Below, piece after piece: positions 5,929-35,166 of a DNA stretch of 57,180 nucleotides; within the stretch, counting starts at the first letter, position 1, and each line of letters opens with the position of its first letter. The position numbers and the translations under genes are program-made. The DNA comes from an uncultured bacterium (GTDB lineage Bacteria; Patescibacteriota; Minisyncoccia; Phycocordibacterales; UBA6065): NCBI GenBank assembly GCA_903842365.1, contig CAIMLU010000018.1, positions 1-57,180 of the forward strand, written 5' to 3'. Under the pieces are notes generated by a model, which saw only the letters and a program-made list of their open reading frames with translations, did no database searches and was not told the origin of the DNA.

Positions 5929-7995
5929 ATGGAAATATCTCCTGACGATAAAGTCACATACTTTGCTCAGACTGATTCTCGCGGCAAAAAAATTCCTTTC
6001 GGCATCAAGTCAAAGGATCGAACACGCCATACCTACATCATTGGAAAAACGGGTATGGGTAAATCAACCGTGCTTGAGAACATGGCAGTCCAAGATATCC
6101 AGAATGGTAATGGTATGGCATTTATTGACCCGCACGGCAAAACCGCTGATCTTTTTCTCCAATATATTCCAGAGGAGCGCATCAAGGATGTTATTTATTT
6201 TGCTCCATTTGATATTGAACACCCAATTTCATTCAATGTCCTCGAAGACGTTGGTGTTGATAAACGCCACCTCGTCGTAAACGGCCTCATGTCGGCGTTT
6301 AAAAAGATTTGGGTCGATGCTTGGTCGGCCCGCATGGAGTATATTTTGAACAACATTCTCTTGGCACTCCTCGAGTATCCTGGTGCAACCATTATTGGTG
6401 TTAACCGAATGCTCGCTGATAAGGACTACCGTAATAAAGTTGTTGCAAATGTGAAAGACCCAGCAGTTCGAGCTTTTTGGATCGATGAATTTGCAAAGTA
6501 TGGTGAAAAGTATATGCAGGAAGCTGGTGCGGCAATTCAAAACAAGATTGGTCAGTTTATTTCAAACCCCCTTGTTCGAAATATTATTGGTCAACAAAAA
6601 TCATCATTTGATATTCGTCGTGTGATGGATGAGAAAAAAATTCTCATTATCAACCTGTCAAAAGGAAGGGTGGGTGAGCAGAATGCGAACCTTTTAGGTT
6701 CAATGCTCATTACCAAGATCTACCTTGGCGCAATGTCCCGTGCCGATGTACCTGAATCAGTGCTCAAAAAACTGCCACAGTTTTACCTATATGTGGACGA
6801 GTTCCAAAACTTTGCTAACGAATCGTTTGCAGATATTTTGTCCGAGGCTCGAAAGTATAAATTAAACCTCACTATCGCACACCAATACATCGAGCAGATG
6901 TCCGAGGAGGTTCGTGCTGCTGTGTTTGGTAACGTTGGAACTATGATTGCTTTCCGTGTCGGTTCATTTGATGCTGAGGTGCTTGAAAAAGAGTTTTCAC
7001 CAGTATTTGAATCGACTGATATTGTGAATTTGGGTATGTACCAGATTTATCTCAAACTCATGATTGATGGTGTTTCGTCACAGCCGTTTTCGGCAACAAC
7101 GCTCCCTCCAATACAATTACCTGGTGTTTCGTATGTTGAGCGTATTGTCGAAGAATCACGAAAGACATACGCCGTCTCACGTGCCGAGGTGGAAGAAGTT
7201 GTGCGTGGGCAGTCCGGTGGAAATAGCTCTGTGGGTGGAGAGCAAAAACCACAAAAGTCTTTTGGAGACAAAAAACCTTTTGCTCCCCGTGATGGAAAAT
7301 TTGAACTTAGACAGCCATCAAATGAAGTACCTCGGACACCGTATCCGCAGAACGTGCAACCTGGACCAATTCAACCAAAGCCCAAGCCTATTGTACAAAT
7401 AGATCAAAACCAGCGTACAGAACGTCCATTGCCACCACCAATATATGAGGAAAAAGAGGGCAATGGTGGAGGCTTTGGATCGCTCAAATCACTTGTATTA
7501 AATGAGGTAAAAACACCTGTGGTTATTTCCAAGGTAGAAAGGACTGAACCTGTTGTGGTGCAGCAACCAAAAGTACTGGGACAACAACCATTACAGCCGG
7601 TTAAAAAAGTTGAACAAGGGAAAGTTGAAAACGTACCAGTGCAACCAAAAGTGCAGATTATGGAAAAGAAGGCTCCTACAAAAGAGCATCTTAACGATTT
7701 GCGGGCGGCACTTGCTGGTATCGTTATTCCTCCTAAAAAAGAGGTTGTAGAGCCGAAGCCTGTCTTGGACAAAAAACCAGAAGCTGTTGTAAAAATGCAG
7801 ACGCAAAAACCTGTAGAAGTACAGAGTCGCACGACAGAGAGGTCAGTACATACCTCCGTACCTCAACAGCAGGTCAATGTGGCCCCAAAAGCACCCGAGG
7901 TGGTTACTGATAACAATCCAAAAAAGCAGCCAGAGCCAACGCGTTCTGAGGTGCCAGAGGATGTGCTTCGAAAAATTCTTGATATGAATAATTAG
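5929..7995 (+). CDS. TraD/VirD4-like (T4SS coupling protein / DUF87-type) P-loop NTPase with a long disordered C-terminal tail
   Basis: Walker A IIGKTGMGKST, Walker B FYLYVDEFQNF, and the KYKLNLTIAHQYIEQM block typical of TraD/TraG_D_C-type ATPases. The last ~260 aa are P/K/Q/V/E-rich low complexity. The ATG at 5929 is preferred to the TTG at 5899. Confidence 0.72.
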   Translation: MEISPDDKVTYFAQTDSRGKKIPFGIKSKDRTRHTYIIGKTGMGKSTVLENMAVQDIQNGNGMAFIDPHGKTADLFLQYIPEERIKDVIYFAPFDIEHPISFNVLEDVGVDKRHLVVNGLMSAFKKIWVDAWSARMEYILNNILLALLEYPGATIIGVNRMLADKDYRNKVVANVKDPAVRAFWIDEFAKYGEKYMQEAGAAIQNKIGQFISNPLVRNIIGQQKSSFDIRRVMDEKKILIINLSKGRVGEQNANLLGSMLITKIYLGAMSRADVPESVLKKLPQFYLYVDEFQNFANESFADILSEARKYKLNLTIAHQYIEQMSEEVRAAVFGNVGTMIAFRVGSFDAEVLEKEFSPVFESTDIVNLGMYQIYLKLMIDGVSSQPFSATTLPPIQLPGVSYVERIVEESRKTYAVSRAEVEEVVRGQSGGNSSVGGEQKPQKSFGDKKPFAPRDGKFELRQPSNEVPRTPYPQNVQPGPIQPKPKPIVQIDQNQRTERPLPPPIYEEKEGNGGGFGSLKSLVLNEVKTPVVISKVERTEPVVVQQPKVLGQQPLQPVKKVEQGKVENVPVQPKVQIMEKKAPTKEHLNDLRAALAGIVIPPKKEVVEPKPVLDKKPEAVVKMQTQKPVEVQSRTTERSVHTSVPQQQVNVAPKAPEVVTDNNPKKQPEPTRSEVPEDVLRKILDMNN

Positions 7996-28612: not shown

Positions 28613-29581
28613 ATGGCATTTGTAGATGAAATCAATATACGCCTCAAAGCAGGCGACGGTGGTGATGGTGTTGTGCGCTGGATGCACGAACGTGGAAAGG
28701 AATTCATGGGCCCTGCGGGCGGCAATGCCGGCCATGGAGGTAATGTGTTTATCGAGGGTGTACGTGATATTGGCGCATTGTTCGCTTTTAGGAATATAAA
28801 AACACTTGAAGCAGAACGTGGTCGTGATGGTGGCAGGGATAGTATGTATGGACGTGCTGGTGATGATTTGATCGTCAAAATTCCTATTGGTTCAGTGGTT
28901 AAAAACCTTGATACTGGGATGGAGATTGAAATCCTCAAAGAAGGTGAACGTGTACAGATTCTCCGCGGTGGTGGTGGTGGTTTTGGTAATGAACATTTTA
29001 AATCATCAACCAATATTGTTCCTGAGCAATCAACGAAAGGTAAAATAGGCGATGGTGCCGATTTTCATATTGAACTTCGCTTGCTCGTCGACGCTGGTTT
29101 TGCTGGTTTTCCAAACGCTGGTAAATCATCACTCTTGAATGCACTTACAAACGCAAAGGCAAAAGTAGCGAGTTATCAATTTACTACGCTCGAACCCAAT
29201 TTGGGTGACATGTATGGGTTTATTCTTGCAGATATTCCAGGTCTTATTGAGGGTGCATCAGAAGGTAAGGGGTTGGGTCACAAATTCCTTCGTCATATTG
29301 CTCGTACGAAAACGATTCTTCACTGTATTTCACTCGAGAATGAGGACATAGCTGCTGCTTACAAAACAATTCGTGCTGAGTTGGAGGCGCACAGCCCAGA
29401 ACTTGCTGCAAAGAAAGAGATTATCGTCTTGACCAAGACTGATCTTGTTGACGAAAAGATATTAAAAACACGCATCAAGGAGGCAAAGAAATTGAATCCA
29501 GATGTTATGTATGTTTCTATTATCGATGATGAACAGGTAAAAGAGTTTAGGGATAACCTTATCAAGACTCTGAGGGTTTAG
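28613..29581 (+). CDS. obg: GTPase Obg/CgtA
   Basis: FVDEINIRLKAGDGGDG Obg fold, G1 GFPNAGKSSLLNAL, G3 DIPGLIEGA, G4 TKTD. Confidence 0.95.
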   Translation: MAFVDEINIRLKAGDGGDGVVRWMHERGKEFMGPAGGNAGHGGNVFIEGVRDIGALFAFRNIKTLEAERGRDGGRDSMYGRAGDDLIVKIPIGSVVKNLDTGMEIEILKEGERVQILRGGGGGFGNEHFKSSTNIVPEQSTKGKIGDGADFHIELRLLVDAGFAGFPNAGKSSLLNALTNAKAKVASYQFTTLEPNLGDMYGFILADIPGLIEGASEGKGLGHKFLRHIARTKTILHCISLENEDIAAAYKTIRAELEAHSPELAAKKEIIVLTKTDLVDEKILKTRIKEAKKLNPDVMYVSIIDDEQVKEFRDNLIKTLRV

Positions 29582-29596
29582 GTTGGTATTCGTGCG

Positions 29597-29625
29597 TTGC
29601 TTTTTCCATTCAAGTGGTGTATAGT
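29597..29625 (+). promoter_or_regulatory. sigma70-like promoter candidate for tRNA-fMet (TTGCTT-17-TATAGT)
   Basis: Hexamers at 29597-29602 and 29620-29625. The tRNA starts 12 nt downstream. Confidence 0.3.
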
Positions 29626-29637
29626 GCTTACCTACAT

Positions 29638-29708
29638 CGCGGGGTGGAGTAATAGTAACTCACGAGGCTCATAACCTCGGGACCCTGGTGCAAATCCGGG
29701 CCCCGCAA
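29638..29708 (+). tRNA. initiator tRNA-fMet (CAT), CCA not encoded
   Basis: Hand-folded cloverleaf. C1xA72 mismatch, A11:T24 pair, and G30G31:C39C40 in the anticodon stem. Anticodon loop is CTCATAA. The D-loop (AATAGTA) and T-loop (TGCAAAT) are atypical. Confidence 0.8.
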
Positions 29709-29909
29709 CAAGAAAAACAAGACACGCACAAGCGTGTTTTTGTTTTTCTTGTTGCGGGGCAGGAAAGCAAACTGCTTTGCTTTCCGACGGATTTGCAAGA
29801 CGGAGTCATGTATTCAGCCCTGTGAATACAGACGAGTCCGGGGAGGAAGTTCTTAATGAGCGAAGCGAATTTAGAAACTTGACCTCAAATCCGGGCCCCG
29901 CAACAAGAA
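29709..29909 (+). ncRNA. tRNA-3'-linked structured element, copy E1 (unclassified)
   Basis: Terminator-like hairpin 29706-29754. Antisense to the tRNA acceptor 3' strand at 29748-29760. 10-bp hairpin at 29762-29785. Antisense to the T-loop at 29788-29797. GACGGAG core. 24-nt exact copy of the tRNA 3' end at 29886-29909. A truncated second unit follows at 29910-29958. Confidence 0.5.
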
Positions 29910-30001
29910 GAAAAATCCCCTTTAGGGGATTTTTCGTTGCGTGGCAGGAAAGTAAACCATAACCATGTTTTTGGGATTAAGATGTCTTATCGTTGGTTCT
30001 A

Positions 30002-30030
30002 TTGAAAAAAAATGAAAAACGTATTAAGAT
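30002..30030 (+). promoter_or_regulatory. sigma70-like promoter candidate for tRNA-Thr(GGT) (TTGAAA-17-TAAGAT)
   Basis: Hexamers at 30002-30007 and 30025-30030. Confidence 0.3.
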
Positions 30031-30056
30031 GACCCTCGTTCCGTTTCAAGAAAAAA

Positions 30057-30132
30057 GCCGTTGTAGCTCAGTTGGTAGAGCACGTCATTGGTAATGACGA
30101 GGTCGCCGGTTCAATCCCGGCCGACGGCTCCA
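30057..30132 (+). tRNA. tRNA-Thr (GGT), CCA encoded
   Basis: Canonical 76-nt cloverleaf: GCCGTTG acceptor, AGTTGGTA D-loop, anticodon loop TTGGTAA, T-loop TTCAATC. Confidence 0.92.
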
Positions 30133-30330
30133 AATAAAAAACACACCTCAAGGTGTGTTTTTTATTTGGAGCCGTCGAGGACGCAAACTGCTTTGCGTCC
30201 GTGCTGGATTGAAAGACGGAGCCCTGTTTTTGTAAGACAAAAACAGGCGAGTCGGGGTCGGGAGTACTTAGTCCGCGCAGGGTGTATTCACCAGAGTAGA
30301 CTTAGTAACTCGTGACTAATCCCGGCCGAC
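30133..30330 (+). ncRNA. tRNA-3'-linked structured element, copy E2 (unclassified)
   Basis: Hairpin 30122-30177 includes antisense to the acceptor 3' strand plus CCA. 9-bp hairpin at 30179-30200. T-loop antisense at 30206-30213. GACGGAG core. ACCA-loop hairpin at 30282-30301. Direct copy aatcccggccgac at 30318-30330, and a further partial copy at 30362-30372. Confidence 0.5.
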
Positions 30331-30385
30331 TCCCAATAACAGTGAATCGAGAGGTAAGGGACCCCGGCCGACACACCGTCTTATT

Positions 30386-30414
30386 TTGCAGGGTATGCTG
30401 ATAGGTGATAGAGT
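30386..30414 (+). promoter_or_regulatory. sigma70-like promoter candidate for tRNA-Thr(CGT) (TTGCAG-17-TAGAGT)
   Basis: Hexamers at 30386-30391 and 30409-30414. Confidence 0.3.
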
Positions 30415-30430
30415 GATCGCGTTAATCAAA

Positions 30431-30503
30431 GCCACCTTAGCTCAGCTGGTAGAGCGACGGTATCGTAAACCGTAGGCCCCCGGTTCAAGCCCGGGAGGTG
30501 GAT
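30431..30503 (+). tRNA. tRNA-Thr (CGT), CCA not encoded, G1-A72 mismatch
   Basis: 73-nt cloverleaf with anticodon loop ATCGTAA and T-loop TTCAAGC. The acceptor is GCCACCT/AGGTGGA, which leaves position 1:72 unpaired. Confidence 0.8.
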
Positions 30504-30687
30504 CAAATAAAAATTCCCTTCAGTGGGAATTTTTATTTGAGCCACCTCAGAAAGCCAATCACTTGGCTTTCGTCCGAGCTTGAACGCCGGAGCGGGACCC
30601 ATATCACCAGATATGGGAGCGAGGCGGTGCCCAGCCCGAGACGAGCGACGGCGAGTTGAGAGGCGAGGGAAAGACCCCGGGAGGTGG
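30504..30687 (+). ncRNA. tRNA-3'-linked structured element, copy E3 (unclassified)
   Basis: Hairpin plus T-run at 30507-30537. Acceptor antisense at 30538-30548. 9-bp hairpin at 30550-30571. T-loop antisense at 30578-30585. GCCGGAG core. ACCA-loop hairpin at 30598-30617. Direct copy cccgggaggtgg at 30676-30687. Confidence 0.5.
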
Positions 30688-30693
30688 CTCTCA

Positions 30694-30726
30694 AAAAAAC
30701 ACTGCTTTTTAAAGCAGTGTTTTTTG
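30694..30726. terminator. bidirectional terminator (tRNA/element array versus helicase gene)
   Basis: aaaaaacactgcttt / aaagcagtgtttttt. Confidence 0.7.
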
Positions 30727-30730
30727 TTTT

Positions 30731-32224
30731 TTATTTATTATCAGGAACGAATGTAAGTGCACTGCCCTTTGATGAGCCACGACCAGTACGGCCGACGCGG
30801 TGAACGTATGTTTCGTAATCCTTAGGCACATCGTAGTTAATAACGTGTGTGATGTCCTTGATATCGATACCTCGTGCAGCAACATCAGTTGCAACAACGA
30901 CTTGTACTTCACCTGTAGTGAGTGATCTTACGGCGCTCATTCGTTCGCGGTTACGCATATCACCGTGAAGTGAAAGTGCTTTGAAACCACGCTTACGAAG
31001 TTCAACTCCTAAGTCTTCTACGTGGCGTTTCATTTCACGGAAGATAAGAACTTTCTTGAAATCGGCGGTCTTCAAGAGTTCATGAAGTTTTTCAATTCGA
31101 TCATGAGGACTTACTCGAACAACATCTTGATCAACATTTGAAGCGGTGTCGCGGGTTTTAACCGAGATATGAGCAGGCTCCTTGAGGAAGGTTGCGCAGA
31201 GTGCTTTTATTTCAGGTGGCATGGTTGCCGAGAAAAAGAGACTCTGACGTTCTTTTGGCATCTCTTTCAAGATACTACGAATATCATCAATGAATCCCAT
31301 ATCAAGCATTCGGTCTGCTTCGTCGAGGACAATGCTTCCGAATTTCTCCATTTTAATGTTTCCACGTTCGATCAAGTCTTTGACACGACCTGGAGTTCCA
31401 ATAACGATAGAGAAGCCACGTTCGAGATCGCGCATCTGTCTGTAGATGGGCATACCACCAACGGCAATAACACTGAAGAGGTGCATACCAAAGGCGAATG
31501 CACGAAATTCTGTTTCAATTTGTTGTGCAAGCTCGCGTGTAGGTGCAAGTACCATGACTTTGTGTCCTGGGTTTGCAAGTATTTTCATAATGAGAGGTAA
31601 GAGGAATGCCGCGGTCTTTCCTGTACCGGTGTTTGCAACACCGACAACATCTTTTCCTGTTATGACAGTAGGAATTGCCTGATCCTGAATAGGAGAAGGA
31701 ATCTTATAGCCCTTAAAGGTGATGTTTTTTAAAAGTTCAGGGTGTAAATTGAAATCAGCAAATGTGTGTTTTGGAACATATGCATCTATTTCAACATCCT
31801 TTGCTTTGTTGATGAAAAGTCGTTCTTCAATACCGTTGTGACGTGTTCCAAATGAACCACCTCCACGATGTCCTCCATACGAGGAACGACGGCTACCTCC
31901 GCCACCATAACGTGGACGAGGTGCATACGAAGAGAATGAAGGACGACGGCTAAAACCACCGCTGCGTGGTGCACCGCCAAAAGAAGCACTTGTGCTACGA
32001 GGAGCATATGAAGCGCTTGCTCCATATGACCGAGCAGCTGTTGGTGCACTTCCACTTCGAGGACTATAAGAAGAAGCACCAGCACTACGGGGAGCGCTGT
32101 GATCGCTTTTACTACGACTAAATGATGGGCCGTGACTTGATGTGCCACGACTAGGTTTCCTTGCCCCAGAAGGGAAAGGAGAGACGGAGGTCCTTACGAC
32201 CTTCCATGTTTTGGATTGATACAT
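30731..32224 (-). CDS. DEAD-box ATP-dependent RNA helicase with an N-terminal R/S/G-rich low-complexity extension
   Basis: Q motif GYKIPSPIQ, motif I ANTGTGKTAAF, DEAD, SAT and HRVGRTGR. The first ~130 aa are Arg/Ser/Gly/Tyr-rich. No internal Met precedes the Q motif. Confidence 0.9.
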   Translation of the reverse strand: MYQSKTWKVVRTSVSPFPSGARKPSRGTSSHGPSFSRSKSDHSAPRSAGASSYSPRSGSAPTAARSYGASASYAPRSTSASFGGAPRSGGFSRRPSFSSYAPRPRYGGGGSRRSSYGGHRGGGSFGTRHNGIEERLFINKAKDVEIDAYVPKHTFADFNLHPELLKNITFKGYKIPSPIQDQAIPTVITGKDVVGVANTGTGKTAAFLLPLIMKILANPGHKVMVLAPTRELAQQIETEFRAFAFGMHLFSVIAVGGMPIYRQMRDLERGFSIVIGTPGRVKDLIERGNIKMEKFGSIVLDEADRMLDMGFIDDIRSILKEMPKERQSLFFSATMPPEIKALCATFLKEPAHISVKTRDTASNVDQDVVRVSPHDRIEKLHELLKTADFKKVLIFREMKRHVEDLGVELRKRGFKALSLHGDMRNRERMSAVRSLTTGEVQVVVATDVAARGIDIKDITHVINYDVPKDYETYVHRVGRTGRGSSKGSALTFVPDNK

Positions 32225-32395
32225 TACGTATTGTTGTTTAGCCTGCGAGTATCATTTTTGCGCAAGCTTTCAACAAACGAAGCGACGTAATGATAGAATC
32301 GAAGGAGTATTTGATAACAAGAGCATACTAATACAAGGGGAGGGAAAAGTCAATGTGTGAGGTAAATCAGAGCTCTTTTTGGTGGGGTGGAGTGC

Positions 32396-32424
32396 TTGAC
32401 ATAGATGTATATTAGGTGTATGAT
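32396..32424 (+). promoter_or_regulatory. near-consensus sigma70 promoter candidate (TTGACA-17-TATGAT)
   Basis: Hexamers at 32396-32401 and 32419-32424, about 65 nt upstream of the 32489 ORF. Confidence 0.45.
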
Positions 32425-32488
32425 ACATAGGTAAATAGTACATTGTAAAACCAAAGTGTTTTGGTTGAGTTTGGAAGGAAATAAGTGA

Positions 32489-32893
32489 TTGACTTGCTGG
32501 CGCGTTGCCAAGCGAATCGTAGATTTCCAGGCTGCTGGTAATGCGATTAAAACCATCGGGGAAGAGTTGAAGGGTACGTTACAGGATTTTCTCATTACTC
32601 ATCCAGAGTGGGCCGGTTACGTACTCTGTTGTCCTCAAGATTATCCCCCAGAGGTTATTTTGCAGGTTGGTGTAAAAGCTGTCGATAATAAACGTCGTGC
32701 ATGCTCATCTTCGGTTGGTTTAACCTACGAAAATCTCACCGATGGGGAACTGACAATGTTTACTGGTTTCATGGAAAAGCATGTCGAATCGATCTTGAAT
32801 AAGGGTATGAAAATCCGCCAAGAGAAAGGAAGATACGGCGATGGTATTGTTTGTTATGTTTTTAAGCCCAACTTTGACTGCTTCAAGAAGTGA
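32489..32893 (+). CDS. hypothetical protein
   Basis: 134-aa ORF (TTG start in the track) followed by the terminator at 32902-32931. No homology recognised. Confidence 0.45.
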   Translation: MTCWRVAKRIVDFQAAGNAIKTIGEELKGTLQDFLITHPEWAGYVLCCPQDYPPEVILQVGVKAVDNKRRACSSSVGLTYENLTDGELTMFTGFMEKHVESILNKGMKIRQEKGRYGDGIVCYVFKPNFDCFKK

Positions 32894-32901
32894 TTCCTTA
32901 C

Positions 32902-32931
32902 AACCCGCATCACGAAAGTGCTCTGCGGGTT
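32902..32931. terminator. bidirectional terminator
   Basis: aacccgca / tgcgggtt stem with an inner cac/gtg extension. T-run on + and A-run upstream. Confidence 0.6.
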
Positions 32932-32947
32932 TTTTTATATATAGATG

Positions 32948-33127
32948 AGTGACGGGGTGCTCTCCCTCGGCTTTTTCCTCGCCGTCGCTCAGAAAAGCCT
33001 GGGCACCGCCTCGCTCCCACATCTGGTGATGTGGGTCCCGCTCCGGCGTTCGAGCCCCTTGCGAAAATGCCTTTTCGCACACTTGCGCAAATAAAAAACA
33101 ATCCAATGAAGGATTGTTTTGTATTTG
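32948..33127 (-). ncRNA. tRNA-3'-linked structured element, copy E4 (unclassified)
   Basis: Read on the minus strand. Hairpin 33080-33135 includes acceptor antisense at 33080-33093. 8-bp hairpin at 33060-33079. T-loop antisense at 33048-33055. GCCGGAG core. ACCA-loop hairpin at 33016-33035. Direct copy at 32948-32957. The core is near-identical to E3. Confidence 0.5.
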
Positions 33128-33201
33128 CGCAAGTGACGGGGCTCGAACCCGCAGCCTCTCCCGTGACAGGGGAGTGCTCTAACCAATTGAGCTACACCTG
33201 C
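33128..33201 (-). tRNA. tRNA-Asp (GTC), CCA not encoded
   Basis: 74-nt cloverleaf on the minus strand: GCAGGTG acceptor, anticodon loop CTGTCAC, T-loop TTCGAGC. Confidence 0.9.
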
Positions 33202-33297
33202 GTGTGGAAGTAATCTAACAGAAAAAGCTTTTGGAGGCAATTGGTTGTAAAACGTACAACAAACAACCCACAACAAACAACTTTCAGGAGAGGGGAA

Positions 33298-33559
33298 GGG
33301 TGGGAATCGGTCATAGATAATTCACTCGTCAGACACTCGTGAATTTCCGCGACCCCTCCCTACAGGAGCTGTACACCTTTTGGGTTGAGTACAATCTCAA
33401 AAGGTCTTGCAAAAGCTCCAAGTATTCGCTTTTTCACCTCACGCCCGAATTCTGGTGAATTCGGACTACGCTTCGCTCCGTGCGTTCCGGCTTTCGATTC
33501 CCACCCCCGACACCTATATACAAGACGACCCATGCTCTCGCATAGGTCGTCTTTCCATG
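33298..33559 (-). ncRNA. tRNA-3'-linked structured element, copy E5 (unclassified, longer variant)
   Basis: Read on the minus strand. A 21-nt continuous antisense to the tRNA T-loop, T-stem and acceptor 3' strand lies at 33493-33513 (versus 33559-33579). CGGAG core. ACCA-loop hairpin at 33445-33464. Direct copy gggtgggaatcg at 33298-33309. Confidence 0.45.
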
Positions 33560-33633
33560 TGTCGGGGGTGGGAATCGAACCCACGACCCCAGGCTTATGA
33601 GTCCTGTGCTCTAGCCAACTGAGCTACCCCGAC
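33560..33633 (-). tRNA. tRNA with CAT anticodon (elongator Met, or Ile2 if lysidine-modified), CCA not encoded
   Basis: 74-nt cloverleaf on the minus strand: GTCGGGG acceptor, AGTTGGCTA D-loop, anticodon loop CTCATAA, T-loop TTCGATT. There is an A31-G39 mismatch at the base of the anticodon stem. Confidence 0.82.
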
Positions 33634-33675
33634 ATGTGGAGGAAATACTAATATGAATTTGTCATACTGACAACC

Positions 33676-35166
33676 ATGGGCTCAATCGTGTATACTAATA
33701 CGACAATGATTTCGAGACGATCAAGGACGGTTCTTTTACTATTTGTAGCAATATTTATTGCTCTTGTTCCTGTCGTCTCTGTGTTCGCAGATAAGACTAT
33801 TTTTTATCCAAGTGTCTGTGATGGTGATTGGCGCAAACCCGAAGAAGCAACCAAATCATTCAGCGTTGAAAAGAGTGATGATATCGATTCGTCAAACAGT
33901 GCTGAATCAAATGGTGTTGGTTCTCGCATTGTTTGTTCACATTTTTCGGATGCAGCACTCTCTGATTTAAGACCTATCTCAGTAAAACTTGAGCTCTCTC
34001 TTCGCCCAATTGGTGAGGGAAATACAGAGGCATCATCAACTATCTCTCGGCTTTTGAGCGATGTGACTGCGCATGCTTTTGCGGATGAAATCACACCATT
34101 AGGATTAGAAGGTGGCGTATCTCAAGTCGCAATAACAGAACCTATTTCAACAACACAGGAGAATGCCGTGGAAAATGTAACGCCTTCCGTTGTTGATCAA
34201 TCAACAGCAACCACATCAACCGTTGAGGAGGTGATTGTCCATGAGGTATCAACAACCTCGATTGATGCTGTGTCTACAAGCACTCCTGATGAGCATTTTG
34301 TTCCAGTAGAAGAAATAAAAGAAGCAACTTCAACTGAGGTCGGGTTGGCAACAACGACTGTAGAAGGTCAAATTGCATCCCACCCCGATATTGAGGCTCA
34401 GATCTCTTTTGATGAAGGTGCATCGTGGAACTTTATTGGCGCTGCTACGATTACAAAACCAGAACGTCTCACTTTCGACGTCCCTCTTTCACATTTTGAG
34501 ACAGGGGAAGATCTTTCCCGTGTATCGATTCGTGTTATAAAAACAGCCGGTACATCCGAAGTCCTTTTTGATTCAAGCGCCCTTTCGATTGGATTTGCAA
34601 ATCTCGAAGGCGATGCACGATCGGTTGTAACACGAAATTTGGAATACATGACACCTGATTTAGCAAACAACACAATCGTTTCTATGATAAACCTGTCGAG
34701 GTATAGCATTATGGGTACAACTGATTCAAGTGGTTCTGGATCACTTTGGGTTTATGATGATCAGGCATCACCTGCAACATCAACCTTTAGAATTGCCTCA
34801 TCAACTACTTTTTCTACAGGATTTTCAGTTGCAATTAAGGACGGTATTATTTTTTGGCTTACTGACAGCAAGACCGTGTATGGGTTTAGGTTGAGTGATG
34901 GGCGATTCCTCATCCCGCTTTCGCATGATGTGCTTGAAACAGGTGAAGTTAATTTCTCATTCTTTGAAACGAAATGGAAGGTAATATCACGTGGGGGAAG
35001 TATCTTTTTTTCGACGCTCGAATCTGGCGAGCTGGCAGGGGATGATGACGGAGTTCTTCGTGAATCTTTTTATCATAAAAATATCGAACCCAATTTAACT
35101 GTGGAGGCAAAGACTGATATGGAACGGTTTGGTGTAACGGACGACACTGTCCCTCCTGAAAGATGA
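33676..35166 (+). CDS. secreted/anchored hypothetical protein (first gene of the surface operon)
   Basis: 496 aa. Signal or anchor is MISRRSRTVLLLFVAIFIALVPVVSVFA (alternative start ATG at 33706). Contains an acidic, T/S/E-rich linker. No homology recognised. Confidence 0.65.
   Translation: MGSIVYTNTTMISRRSRTVLLLFVAIFIALVPVVSVFADKTIFYPSVCDGDWRKPEEATKSFSVEKSDDIDSSNSAESNGVGSRIVCSHFSDAALSDLRPISVKLELSLRPIGEGNTEASSTISRLLSDVTAHAFADEITPLGLEGGVSQVAITEPISTTQENAVENVTPSVVDQSTATTSTVEEVIVHEVSTTSIDAVSTSTPDEHFVPVEEIKEATSTEVGLATTTVEGQIASHPDIEAQISFDEGASWNFIGAATITKPERLTFDVPLSHFETGEDLSRVSIRVIKTAGTSEVLFDSSALSIGFANLEGDARSVVTRNLEYMTPDLANNTIVSMINLSRYSIMGTTDSSGSGSLWVYDDQASPATSTFRIASSTTFSTGFSVAIKDGIIFWLTDSKTVYGFRLSDGRFLIPLSHDVLETGEVNFSFFETKWKVISRGGSIFFSTLESGELAGDDDGVLRESFYHKNIEPNLTVEAKTDMERFGVTDDTVPPER

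Follow-up and report, generated by a model that had tools for sequence, protein, structure and literature searches.

The window (the whole stretch of 57,180 nt that was analysed) contains six tRNA genes, of which, as the initial annotation had stated, five do not encode CCA, and five further elements (E1 to E5, Table 1). Each element lies downstream of a tRNA gene on the same strand, whose 3′ end it repeats twice, once inverted and once directly; the direct copies are 10–24 nt long. E1 and E3 are each flanked by terminator-like hairpins, and no promoter-like sites were found inside the elements. In a cmscan of the region against Rfam 15 the tRNAs alone passed, all other matches falling far below threshold. 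The gene-proximal 3′ strand of tRNA-Thr(CGU) leaves its G1-A72 unpaired.

Table 1. Positions of tRNA genes, elements and their parts in the window (R1, covariance model of the core; MFE, single-sequence minimum free energy fold).
Feature	Position	Strand	Remarks
Initiator-type tRNA-Met(CAU) gene	29638..29709	+	CCA not encoded; ARAGORN; Rfam tRNA, 54 bits
Element E1	29710..29909	+	sequence reading; R1 25.8 bits, E 1.6e-5; order: terminator hairpin, inverted tRNA 3′-end copy, hairpin H2, core, direct tRNA-end copy
E1 terminator-like site	29719-29740		
E1 core	29793-29897		
E1 P1	~29808-29832		loop GCCCUG
E1 direct copy	29886-29909		
tRNA-Thr(GGU) gene	30057..30132	+	the only one of the window's six to encode CCA; ARAGORN, Rfam
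Element E2	30133..30340	+	R1 28.7-33.8 bits, E ~1e-5; core match from 30209
E2 true P1 hairpin	30223-30247	+	loop AAGA
E2 ACCA hairpin	30282-30301		inside P3 arm
tRNA-Thr(CGU) gene	30431..30504	+	CCA not encoded; ARAGORN, Rfam
Element E3	30505..30692	+	begins with terminator hairpin; R1 30580-30681, 78.7 bits, E 7.6e-18; MFE
E3 inverted copy, part 1	30539-30548		
E3 H2	30550-30571		
E3 inverted copy, part 2	30572-30585		
E3 lower helix	30586-30593 with 30619-30625		bulged G and tandem G-A
E3 P1	30598-30617		ACCA loop
E3 linker	30626-30629		GGUG
E3 P3 arm	30630-30669		
E3 direct copy	30676-30688		
E3 terminator-like site	30694-30725		
Element E4	32944..33126	-	behind tRNA-Asp; R1 76.7 bits, E 2.2e-17; sequence
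E4 inverted copy	33088-33080		
E4 H2	33079-33060		
E4 inverted copy, part 2	33059-33048		
E4 core	33053-32952		
E4 P1	33035-33016	-	ACCA loop
E4 direct copy	32958-32944		degenerate
tRNA-Asp(GUC) gene	33127..33201	-	CCA not encoded; ARAGORN, Rfam
Element E5	33290..33558	-	behind elongator tRNA-Met; further modules; sequence, MFE; R1 6.2 bits, not significant
E5 inverted copy	33512-33493		uninterrupted, 20 nt
E5 ACCA hairpin	33464-33445	-	in extended P1
E5 direct copy	~33310-33292		degenerate
Elongator tRNA-Met(CAU) gene	33559..33633	-	CCA not encoded; ARAGORN, Rfam

The initial annotation had singled out, in E2 to E5, a conserved 8-bp hairpin with an invariant ACCA tetraloop and compensatory changes in its stem. 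The four sequences proved correct letter for letter and in their coordinates, as did the single compensated pair that distinguishes E3 from E4 (U:A vs C:G) and the count of seven out of eight pairs in E2, which includes one G:U and leaves one G-G mismatch. As one conserved feature, the four hairpins held together only in part. Those of E3, E4 and E5 are all present in single-sequence MFE folds and form the distal part of one and the same arm, termed P1, in a conserved core shaped as a three-way junction. The first two occupy the P1 slot of the covariance model R1; the E5 hairpin sits in an extended P1, and its homologue in a same-genus genome (G001, locus L031) is capped by AGCA; this homology rests on visual comparison with the extended P1 of that one relative, which R1 does match. 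The E1 hairpin likewise represents the equivalent slot with another loop, as had been noted. By contrast, the E2 hairpin was rejected as a P1 homologue, for it lies inside the P3 arm, at a position occupied by ACCC in the relatives C11 and C20. In that arm of E2, GGUG pairs with CACC around a UAUU loop according to both the MFE fold and an alignment fold of four such P3 arms. Genome-wide, ACCA-capped hairpins with at least seven of eight pairs number 57, whereas the average tetraloop sequence caps 52, so that such a hairpin is not rare as such; the non-random feature is the conserved slot.

Model R1, which was calibrated, draws solely on copies from other genomes. It describes a core of ~100 nt in the form of a three-way junction, which leads (5′ to 3′) from a lower helix through a bulged G, a tandem G-A/A-G and a G-C/C-G step into P1, and on to a GGUG or GGGG linker and the P3 arm, which has G-A motifs of its own. 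Double changes occur in 16 of the 28 pairs of the seed, a number reached by none of 500 shuffles. Among 65 distinct copies from a wide scan they extend to 26 of the 28 pairs, and paired cells amount to 92% as compared to 63% in shuffles and 30–46% with the partners slid, values to be read with the bias of model-made alignments towards the model's own structure in mind. All nine pairs of P1 are changed on both sides in this set, so that the earlier proposal of selection on structure rather than on sequence is well supported. The arm itself ranges from a minimal GC-GACG-GC to versions that host entire nested modules; its stem is maintained by compensatory change, while its length and cap are free to vary.

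The strand on which the fold is formed could be assessed from the asymmetry of mismatches. In paired columns G:U exceeds A:C about 5:1 (65:13 and 61:12), which argues that the tRNA-sense strand is the folding strand; G-A/A-G is likewise in excess over U-C/C-U (115:26 and 122:35) with balanced base composition. Since G:T and G-A are also tolerated in folded single-stranded DNA, this sequence-derived assignment would apply to RNA and to ssDNA alike. The tandem G-A is shared with L7Ae-type kink-turns, which, however, have a three-nucleotide bulge in place of the single bulged G; a PF01248 (L7Ae family) match was found in only two of 151 genomes of the order, and none in the genome that harbors the window.

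The claimed invariance of the loop did not survive a broader comparison, a variable loop being an outcome that the initial annotation had itself named as refuting. Of the 63 distinct loops that the wide scan yielded, three are ACCA, compared with 27 for AGCA and 12 for AGUA (62% for the two together). In the family/order set, where UUU and CUU triloops are as common as these tetraloops, ACCA caps 3 of 95 distinct P1 hairpins; overall, it caps ~3–5% of distinct copies. Most caps are either A-G/C-Y-A tetraloops or YUU triloops. The cap is not random, since position 3 of the tetraloops is a pyrimidine and ~90% of them retain A as both first and last base, which makes some specific recognition of the loop possible. 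Tetraloops of the A-N-Y-A and A-G-N-N classes are known from MS2 operator-type hairpins and from Rnt1p substrates, respectively. The P1 cap resembles them in having A at positions 1 and 4 with, mostly, G/C and then a pyrimidine in between, albeit as a likeness of sequence only, and it differs from them in that many P1 copies carry triloops.

ACCA is a minor variant of the cap, by chance common in this one genome, where further copies have AGCA (five) or AGUA (three). The P1 modules of E3, E4 and a copy behind tRNA-Tyr are 94–98% identical (94% for E3 vs E4) next to unrelated flanks, and must therefore be regarded as recent copies rather than as independent evidence; with E2 at a non-homologous place, three of the four cases first cited thus carry little weight. 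The E3 and tRNA-Tyr cores share 97% identity with 5′ flanks at just 58%, whereas E4 matches at 98% in the P1 module and at only 71% in P3. These patterns indicate one ACCA-carrying core lineage that was copied or gene-converted among the tRNA-Thr, tRNA-Asp and tRNA-Tyr loci. The same cap is found in E5 and on three P3-arm hairpins of this genome (two on contig C54 and one on contig C10); by this tally only, ACCA occurs there on unrelated stems within one genome.

Such variation bears directly on the suggestion that the ACCA loop looks like the 3′ terminus of a mature tRNA (A73-CCA) to a factor that binds such ends, for example the CCA-adding enzyme, and serves as its docking site. The idea drew on the scarcity of encoded CCA in the window, and the appearance of ACCA on three or more kinds of unrelated stem in the genome (E3-type P1, the extended P1 of E5, and the P3-arm hairpins of C54 and C10) would agree with it. 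Yet elsewhere the P1 slot reads AGCA, AGUA, AGCU, UUU or CUU in ~95% of copies, and the retrieved copies of same-genus genomes have no ACCA at all. Furthermore, elements are also carried by tRNA genes that do encode CCA, namely tRNA-Thr(UGU) on contig C11 and tRNA-Thr(GGU) in the window, and a closed loop of four nucleotides offers no free 3′ end. A search for the predicted UGGU-type partner, in which the mutual information between the loop and all columns was scanned, revealed no distant covarying position within the element and no column that changes with the loop in a Watson-Crick manner, and a D-loop UGGU is inconsistently present in the tRNAs beside ACCA copies (in Thr and Asp, but not in Met and Tyr). 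With a variable loop that has no covarying partner, the mimicry proposal is left unsupported; on our reading it is refuted at the family level, and we deem it exceedingly improbable. A comparably slim chance is given to a pseudoknot between CACC (the last base of the stem plus ACC) and the GGUG linker, or to a kissing contact of the loop with that of H2, either of which would explain its conservation. Complementary CACC and GGUG do occur in E3, E4, E5 and the tRNA-Tyr copy, and extend to 5–6 bp in the tRNA-Ser(UGA) (C65) and tRNA-Ile(GAU) (C41) copies. However, GGUG is retained under AGCA, AGUA, CUU or UUU loops, that is, without covariation, the mutual-information scan is as negative for this pairing as for the previous one, and the H2 loops beside ACCA copies are mutually unrelated. 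An 8-bp stem with a 4-nt loop would also be too cramped to accommodate a second helix of 4 bp.

Beyond the window, R1 detects 16 copies in the 0.81-Mb genome, after most of its tRNA genes, and has matches in 16 of 29 genomes of the family and in 65 of 151 sampled genomes of the order. The scan of a genome collection added matches in Kaiser-, Taylor-, Nomura-, Wolfe-, Uhr- and related Parcubacteria/Paceibacterota MAGs. A same-strand tRNA gene lies within 400 nt upstream of 134 of 156 distinct copies, at a median gap of 68 nt. In these Patescibacteria the element stands right behind the terminator hairpins that follow most tRNA genes and, now and then, other genes such as rpsI; it is gene-less, and each copy holds inverted and direct versions of the 12–25 nt that precede the terminator. 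Pairing of a 5′ flank is stronger with the 3′ flank of the same copy than with those of other copies (-13.3 vs -9.6 kcal/mol, p 1e-18). The first hairpin behind several tRNAs resembles a competent intrinsic terminator, by which read-through would be limited.

Sites behind rpsI that are filled (G000 and G006) were compared with empty ones (G001 and G003). The insertion starts right behind a terminator that was already there, and in each genome its opening bases are a mirror image of the end of that genome's rpsI. The mirror copy therefore follows whichever gene end stands before the terminator and lacks specificity for tRNA.

By description rather than by sequence, the closest known relatives appear to be the tRNA-linked repeats (TLRs) of E. 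coli. These lie between dual terminators, end in 18–19 nt of the 3′ end of the upstream gene and are transcribed by read-through; their units include rtT of tyrT-tyrV and rrA/rrB/rrF behind 5S rRNA (PMC8144298). The patescibacterial elements are, like TLRs, gene-less and located directly downstream of tRNA genes, often between terminators, and both the direct tRNA-end copies of 10–24 nt and the dual terminator-like hairpins of E1 and E3 have counterparts there. Unlike TLRs, they possess a covarying three-way-junction core and an additional inverted tRNA-end copy, occur many times in a tiny genome and are occasionally found behind protein genes. A second parallel is provided by theta (minimal HDV-like) ribozymes near phage tRNA genes, which cleave within ~5 nt of the tRNA end and fold as a nested double pseudoknot (PMC10879173). 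They too are small structured RNAs (predicted as such in our case) in tRNA 3′ trailers, whereas the patescibacterial core begins at a median of 68 nt after the tRNA and is a plain three-way junction, with no evidence of a pseudoknot and no ribozyme match in the Rfam scan of the region.

Other likenesses are to mobile DNA. REP/BIME/REPIN sequences, which are mobilised by RAYT (Y1/HUH) transposases, are also short, ORF-less, modular hairpin mosaics with compensated stems at gene 3′ ends; in the patescibacterial element, however, the flanks are copied from the neighbouring gene, and the conserved asymmetric G-A motifs and G:U excess point to a single folded strand. Integrative elements of tRNA genes (attL/attR) share the direct repeat of the tRNA 3′ end around the insert, tandem accumulation, and a functional gene-proximal copy with a distal one that often decays, but the inserts studied here are only ~100–250 nt long, lack an integrase, carry an inverted target copy and are also present behind rpsI.

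In an alternative reading, the hairpins would act at the DNA level, as parts of a selfish, non-autonomous mobile element that inserts after terminator hairpins via folded ssDNA or a reverse-transcribed intermediate. Their stems would be preserved for being read by a trans-acting recombinase or transposase, and the inverted and direct target copies would be made upon insertion. Among same-genus genomes (G000, G001 and G002) the orthologous tRNA-Lys(UUU), tRNA-Asp and tRNA-Val(UAC) loci differ in their elements, as expected from turnover; near-identical cores recur at different tRNAs within locus-specific flanks, tandem arrays end their last unit at varying points, the make-up is modular and mosaic, and the filled and empty rpsI sites fit as well. 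On the other hand, a partner enzyme was not found. Y1_Tnp does not track the element (40 of 65 genomes with it vs 51 of 86 without) and is missing from G001 with its 8–9 copies, while reverse transcriptase (33 of 65 vs 28 of 86) is absent from G000, G001, G091 and G104, each of which has 8–16 copies. The bulged-G/tandem G-A motifs and the 5:1 excess of G:U are more typical of RNA, though not decisive, and the tRNA-Lys element is far better kept than its flanks between G001 and G002 (three changes in ~170 nt, counted by eye), a conservation that fits constraint and recent insertion equally. Overall, we consider this DNA-level reading rather unlikely. The explanation that we regard as probable is that the ACCA hairpins of E3, E4 and E5 belong to the P1 arm of a tRNA-linked patescibacterial repeat. 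In such a structure the inverted copy would pair with the direct copy and close the fold, and P1 would serve as a peripheral structural arm, possibly one contacted by a protein, and not as a mimic of the CCA end. A fuller scenario is decidedly speculative, and we would not bet on it: a new kind of terminator-seeking, protein-less repeat may gain on arrival its mirror and direct copies of any sequence that stands before the terminator, be it a tRNA end or the last codons of rpsI, its A-G/C-Y-A-capped arms (ACCA included) may act as handles for a putative host processing or copying factor, and the folded RNA may represent an undescribed class of tRNA trailers in Patescibacteria.

For practical purposes, the CCA-mimic idea can be dropped, which spares follow-up effort, and the hairpins are now placed precisely within a widespread, apparently uncatalogued folded element that, in genomes of only 0.6–0.9 Mb, takes up the trailer behind most tRNA genes. 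The calibrated core model, the folding-strand evidence, the bulged-G/tandem-G-A motifs, the A-G/C-Y-A cap preference and the filled-vs-empty comparison at rpsI are new. Should the elements be processed RNAs, they would constitute a patescibacterial counterpart of the long-unexplained tRNA-linked repeats of E. coli.

Pattern searches in relatives revealed that the motifs CGGAGC and GCGAGGCGGUG flank hairpins of very different sequence and loop, and a core structure was written from nine of these copies, all taken from genomes other than the one harbouring the window (G000). In this structure, a lower helix leads via a bulged G and a tandem G-A/A-G to a G-C/C-G step and the hairpin P1; the linker GGUG follows, and finally the arm P3, in which an A/GA internal loop is accompanied by another tandem G-A and by a loop reading GACG. 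Double-sided changes were observed in 16 of the 28 pairs of the nine-copy structure, with shuffle and slid controls nowhere near, and a covariance model of this three-way-junction core (R1) was built from it. Among 65 distinct copies from a wide scan, double changes affect 26 of the 28 pairs, including all nine of P1. The initial annotation had read compensatory changes in four ACCA-capped hairpins as selection on pairing, and it was right in this respect: P1 is a real, well-supported structural arm.

The same annotation regarded the ACCA loop as invariant and as a possible mimic of the tRNA CCA end; neither proposal holds, the P1 loop being variable. The loops of 95 distinct hairpins from the family and order were UUU (12), CUU (11), AGUA (11), AGCA (11), AGCU (5), ACCA (3) and others; in the wide scan, 63 distinct copies had AGCA (27), AGUA (12), AGAA (3), ACCA (3) and others. 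A stands at positions 1 and 4 in about 90% of tetraloops. As the ACCA copies found elsewhere (Uhrbacteria, Nomurabacteria and others) sit on unrelated stems, ACCA is a minor, tolerated form of an A-G/C-Y-A cap. Within G000, AGCA (5) and AGUA (3) caps occur alongside ACCA. An ACCA-capped hairpin in itself is not unusual in this genome: 57 were counted in which 7 or all 8 pairs form, and the average over tetraloop sequences is 52. The size of P1 ranges from GC-GACG-GC up to forms holding whole nested modules, which is the expectation for a peripheral arm. Three more hairpins with an ACCA cap, of the type AAUUUUUC-ACCA-GAAAAAUA, are found on P3-type arms in further G000 copies, the closest relatives of which in the same genome have AGCA at this place.

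A covarying TGGT-type partner, which the initial annotation had proposed to search for, did not emerge: a mutual-information scan returned no partner for the P1 loop, and the D-loop UGGU was inconsistent and was ruled out. A CACC/GGUG pseudoknot was rejected because the GGUG linker is constant whichever loop is present. Loop-loop kissing with H2 (a small hairpin upstream of the core) was rejected as well, the H2 loops of different copies bearing no relation to each other. A theta/HDV-like ribozyme was ruled out by its different position and topology. A few A:C mismatches in H2 had prompted us to consider an antisense transcript, an option ruled out by the 5:1 G:U excess of the core on the tRNA-sense strand. 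Indeed, in two counts of paired columns G:U outnumbered A:C (65:13 and 61:12) and G-A/A-G outnumbered U-C/C-U (115:26 and 122:35) at balanced base composition; therefore, the tRNA-sense strand is the folded strand.

All four ACCA sequences are present exactly where they had been annotated. E3 and E4, the elements behind tRNA-Thr(CGU) and tRNA-Asp, are indeed one compensated pair apart; both are R1 hits at E about 1e-17, in which the ACCA hairpin takes the P1 position. E1 and E2, behind the initiator-type tRNA-Met(CAU) and tRNA-Thr(GGU), match at about 1e-5. The E1 hairpin, described as lying at the equivalent place with a different loop, does occupy the P1 slot of its match. The P1 of E2 has the loop AAGA, and its ACCA stretch falls within the P3 arm; of the other P3 arms in G000, the three most similar have ACCC or are wholly different. 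Because GGUG and CACC form a helix with UAUU as its loop in both the alignment fold and the MFE structure, the proposed ACCA hairpin of E2 is probably not formed. E5, behind the elongator tRNA-Met, gave no significant R1 score, and its MAFFT alignment with E3/E4 was unsuccessful; it was therefore placed via a relative. Its segment GCACGGAGCG-AGCG-AGU-hairpin-GGGCGUGAGG is colinear with the R1-matched extended P1 of a same-genus genome, which has a different stem and the loop AGCA. Nor can the window copies serve as separate evidence, the P1 modules of E3, E4 and the tRNA-Tyr copy being near-identical. The E3 and tRNA-Tyr cores are 97% identical but their 5' flanks merely 58%, and for E4 the figures are 98% in the P1 module and just 71% in the P3 arm, a mosaic of sequence identities that points to recent copying or gene conversion.

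R1 matches 16 copies in G000, and copies were found in 16 of 29 family genomes and 65 of 151 genomes sampled from the order. A wider set, obtained by pattern-scanning a species-level genome collection and then applying R1, includes Kaiser-, Taylor-, Nomura-, Wolfe-, Yanofsky-, Jorgensen- and Uhrbacteria and other Parcubacteria/Paceibacterota MAGs. Actinobacterial pattern matches (Streptomyces and others) had no R1 match and were treated as chance or unrelated. They occur in many actinobacterial genomes; those in L120, L122, L126, L131 and other Streptomyces/Kitasatospora records span ~49 nt without an RNA-model match, and instead of being mere chance matches they may mark a gene segment that is GC-rich and conserved. 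A permissive Rfam scan of 29400-33800 returned tRNAs only, and our literature search found no relevant prior description of the element in Patescibacteria.

The window is contig C18 of G000 (0.81 Mb, 41.6% G+C), which has 41 tRNA genes, and a gene-less stretch of 180-270 nt follows each of five of the six in the window. In the tRNA sense, the tRNA 3' end is followed by a terminator-like hairpin and then by the acceptor 3' strand in inverted copy. Next usually comes H2, and after it a further inverted copy, which corresponds to the T-loop and T-stem 3' strand and has GAAC at its end; the conserved core and a repeat of the tRNA 3' end in direct orientation complete the stretch. Of the 41 tRNA genes, more than 20 are followed by this arrangement, and a same-strand tRNA lies no more than 400 nt upstream of 86% of distinct copies. 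The 5' inverted copy pairs better with the distal copy of its own element than with those of other elements; this pairing would close the junction. Terminator-like hairpins lie on both sides of the elements, with no promoter-like sites inside them. The tRNA-linked repeats of E. coli, described as lying between dual terminators and transcribed by read-through, likewise finish with a repeat of the 3' end of the gene upstream (PMC8144298).

In tRNA-Thr(CGU), G1-A72 is unpaired in the contiguous 3' strand, and C72, which is able to pair, is kept in the displaced downstream copy and in the inverted copy. E3 and E4 are oppositely oriented, face to face, with P1 modules 94% identical; between them lie a DEAD-box helicase gene, whose N-terminal part of ~175 aa is of low complexity, and an ORF of 134 aa without a Pfam match.

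Coordinates of elements and associated features in the window and in other contigs
Feature	Contig	Position	Strand	Locus
P1 of E2	window	30223-30247		
tRNA-Thr(CGU)	window	30431-30504		
E3	window	30505-30692		
Displaced downstream copy with C72	window	30676-30688		
DEAD-box helicase gene	window	30731-32224	minus	
E4	window	32944-33126		
rpsI copy	G000 C6	about 6980-7290		L089:181-490
Orphan array	G000 C10	1700-2300		L087
Head-to-tail array	G003 C11	about 124400-124870		L020, L021, L034
ACCA-capped P3-type arm	G000 C54	near 5		
ACCA-capped P3-type arm	G000 C54	near 3042		
ACCA-capped P3-type arm	G000 C10	near 12471	minus	

One G000 copy is located behind the ribosomal protein S9 gene (rpsI) instead of a tRNA. 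The insert starts directly behind the terminator that it has in common with an empty same-genus locus; this terminator is followed by GCGCTTTGAC, a mirror of the last rpsI codons, and ~250 nt further on the gene end recurs as a diverged direct copy. G001 and G003 lack the insert at this locus, whereas it is filled in G006, the mirror of which matches its own, different, synonymous codons. Orthologous tRNAs bear different elements among same-genus genomes.

No partner enzyme emerged among the candidates considered. An L7Ae/K-turn partner was ruled out, as the L7Ae family is essentially absent; Y1 transposase showed no association with the element; and reverse transcriptase was weakly associated (33 of 65 genomes with the element vs 28 of 86) and absent from several copy-rich genomes. 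Across the 151 order genomes, Y1_Tnp-like ORFs (about 220-260 aa) occur in 91, often in multiple copies, and reverse transcriptases of about 340-370 aa in 61.

Arrays of element units were also observed. An orphan array in G000, with no adjoining tRNA gene, has units in which the 3' end of tRNA-Ser(CGA) recurs, both mirrored and as direct copies. In G003, at least three head-to-tail 132-nt units lie behind one tRNA gene; the last is truncated inside the core after CGGAG, and last units at other loci stop elsewhere.
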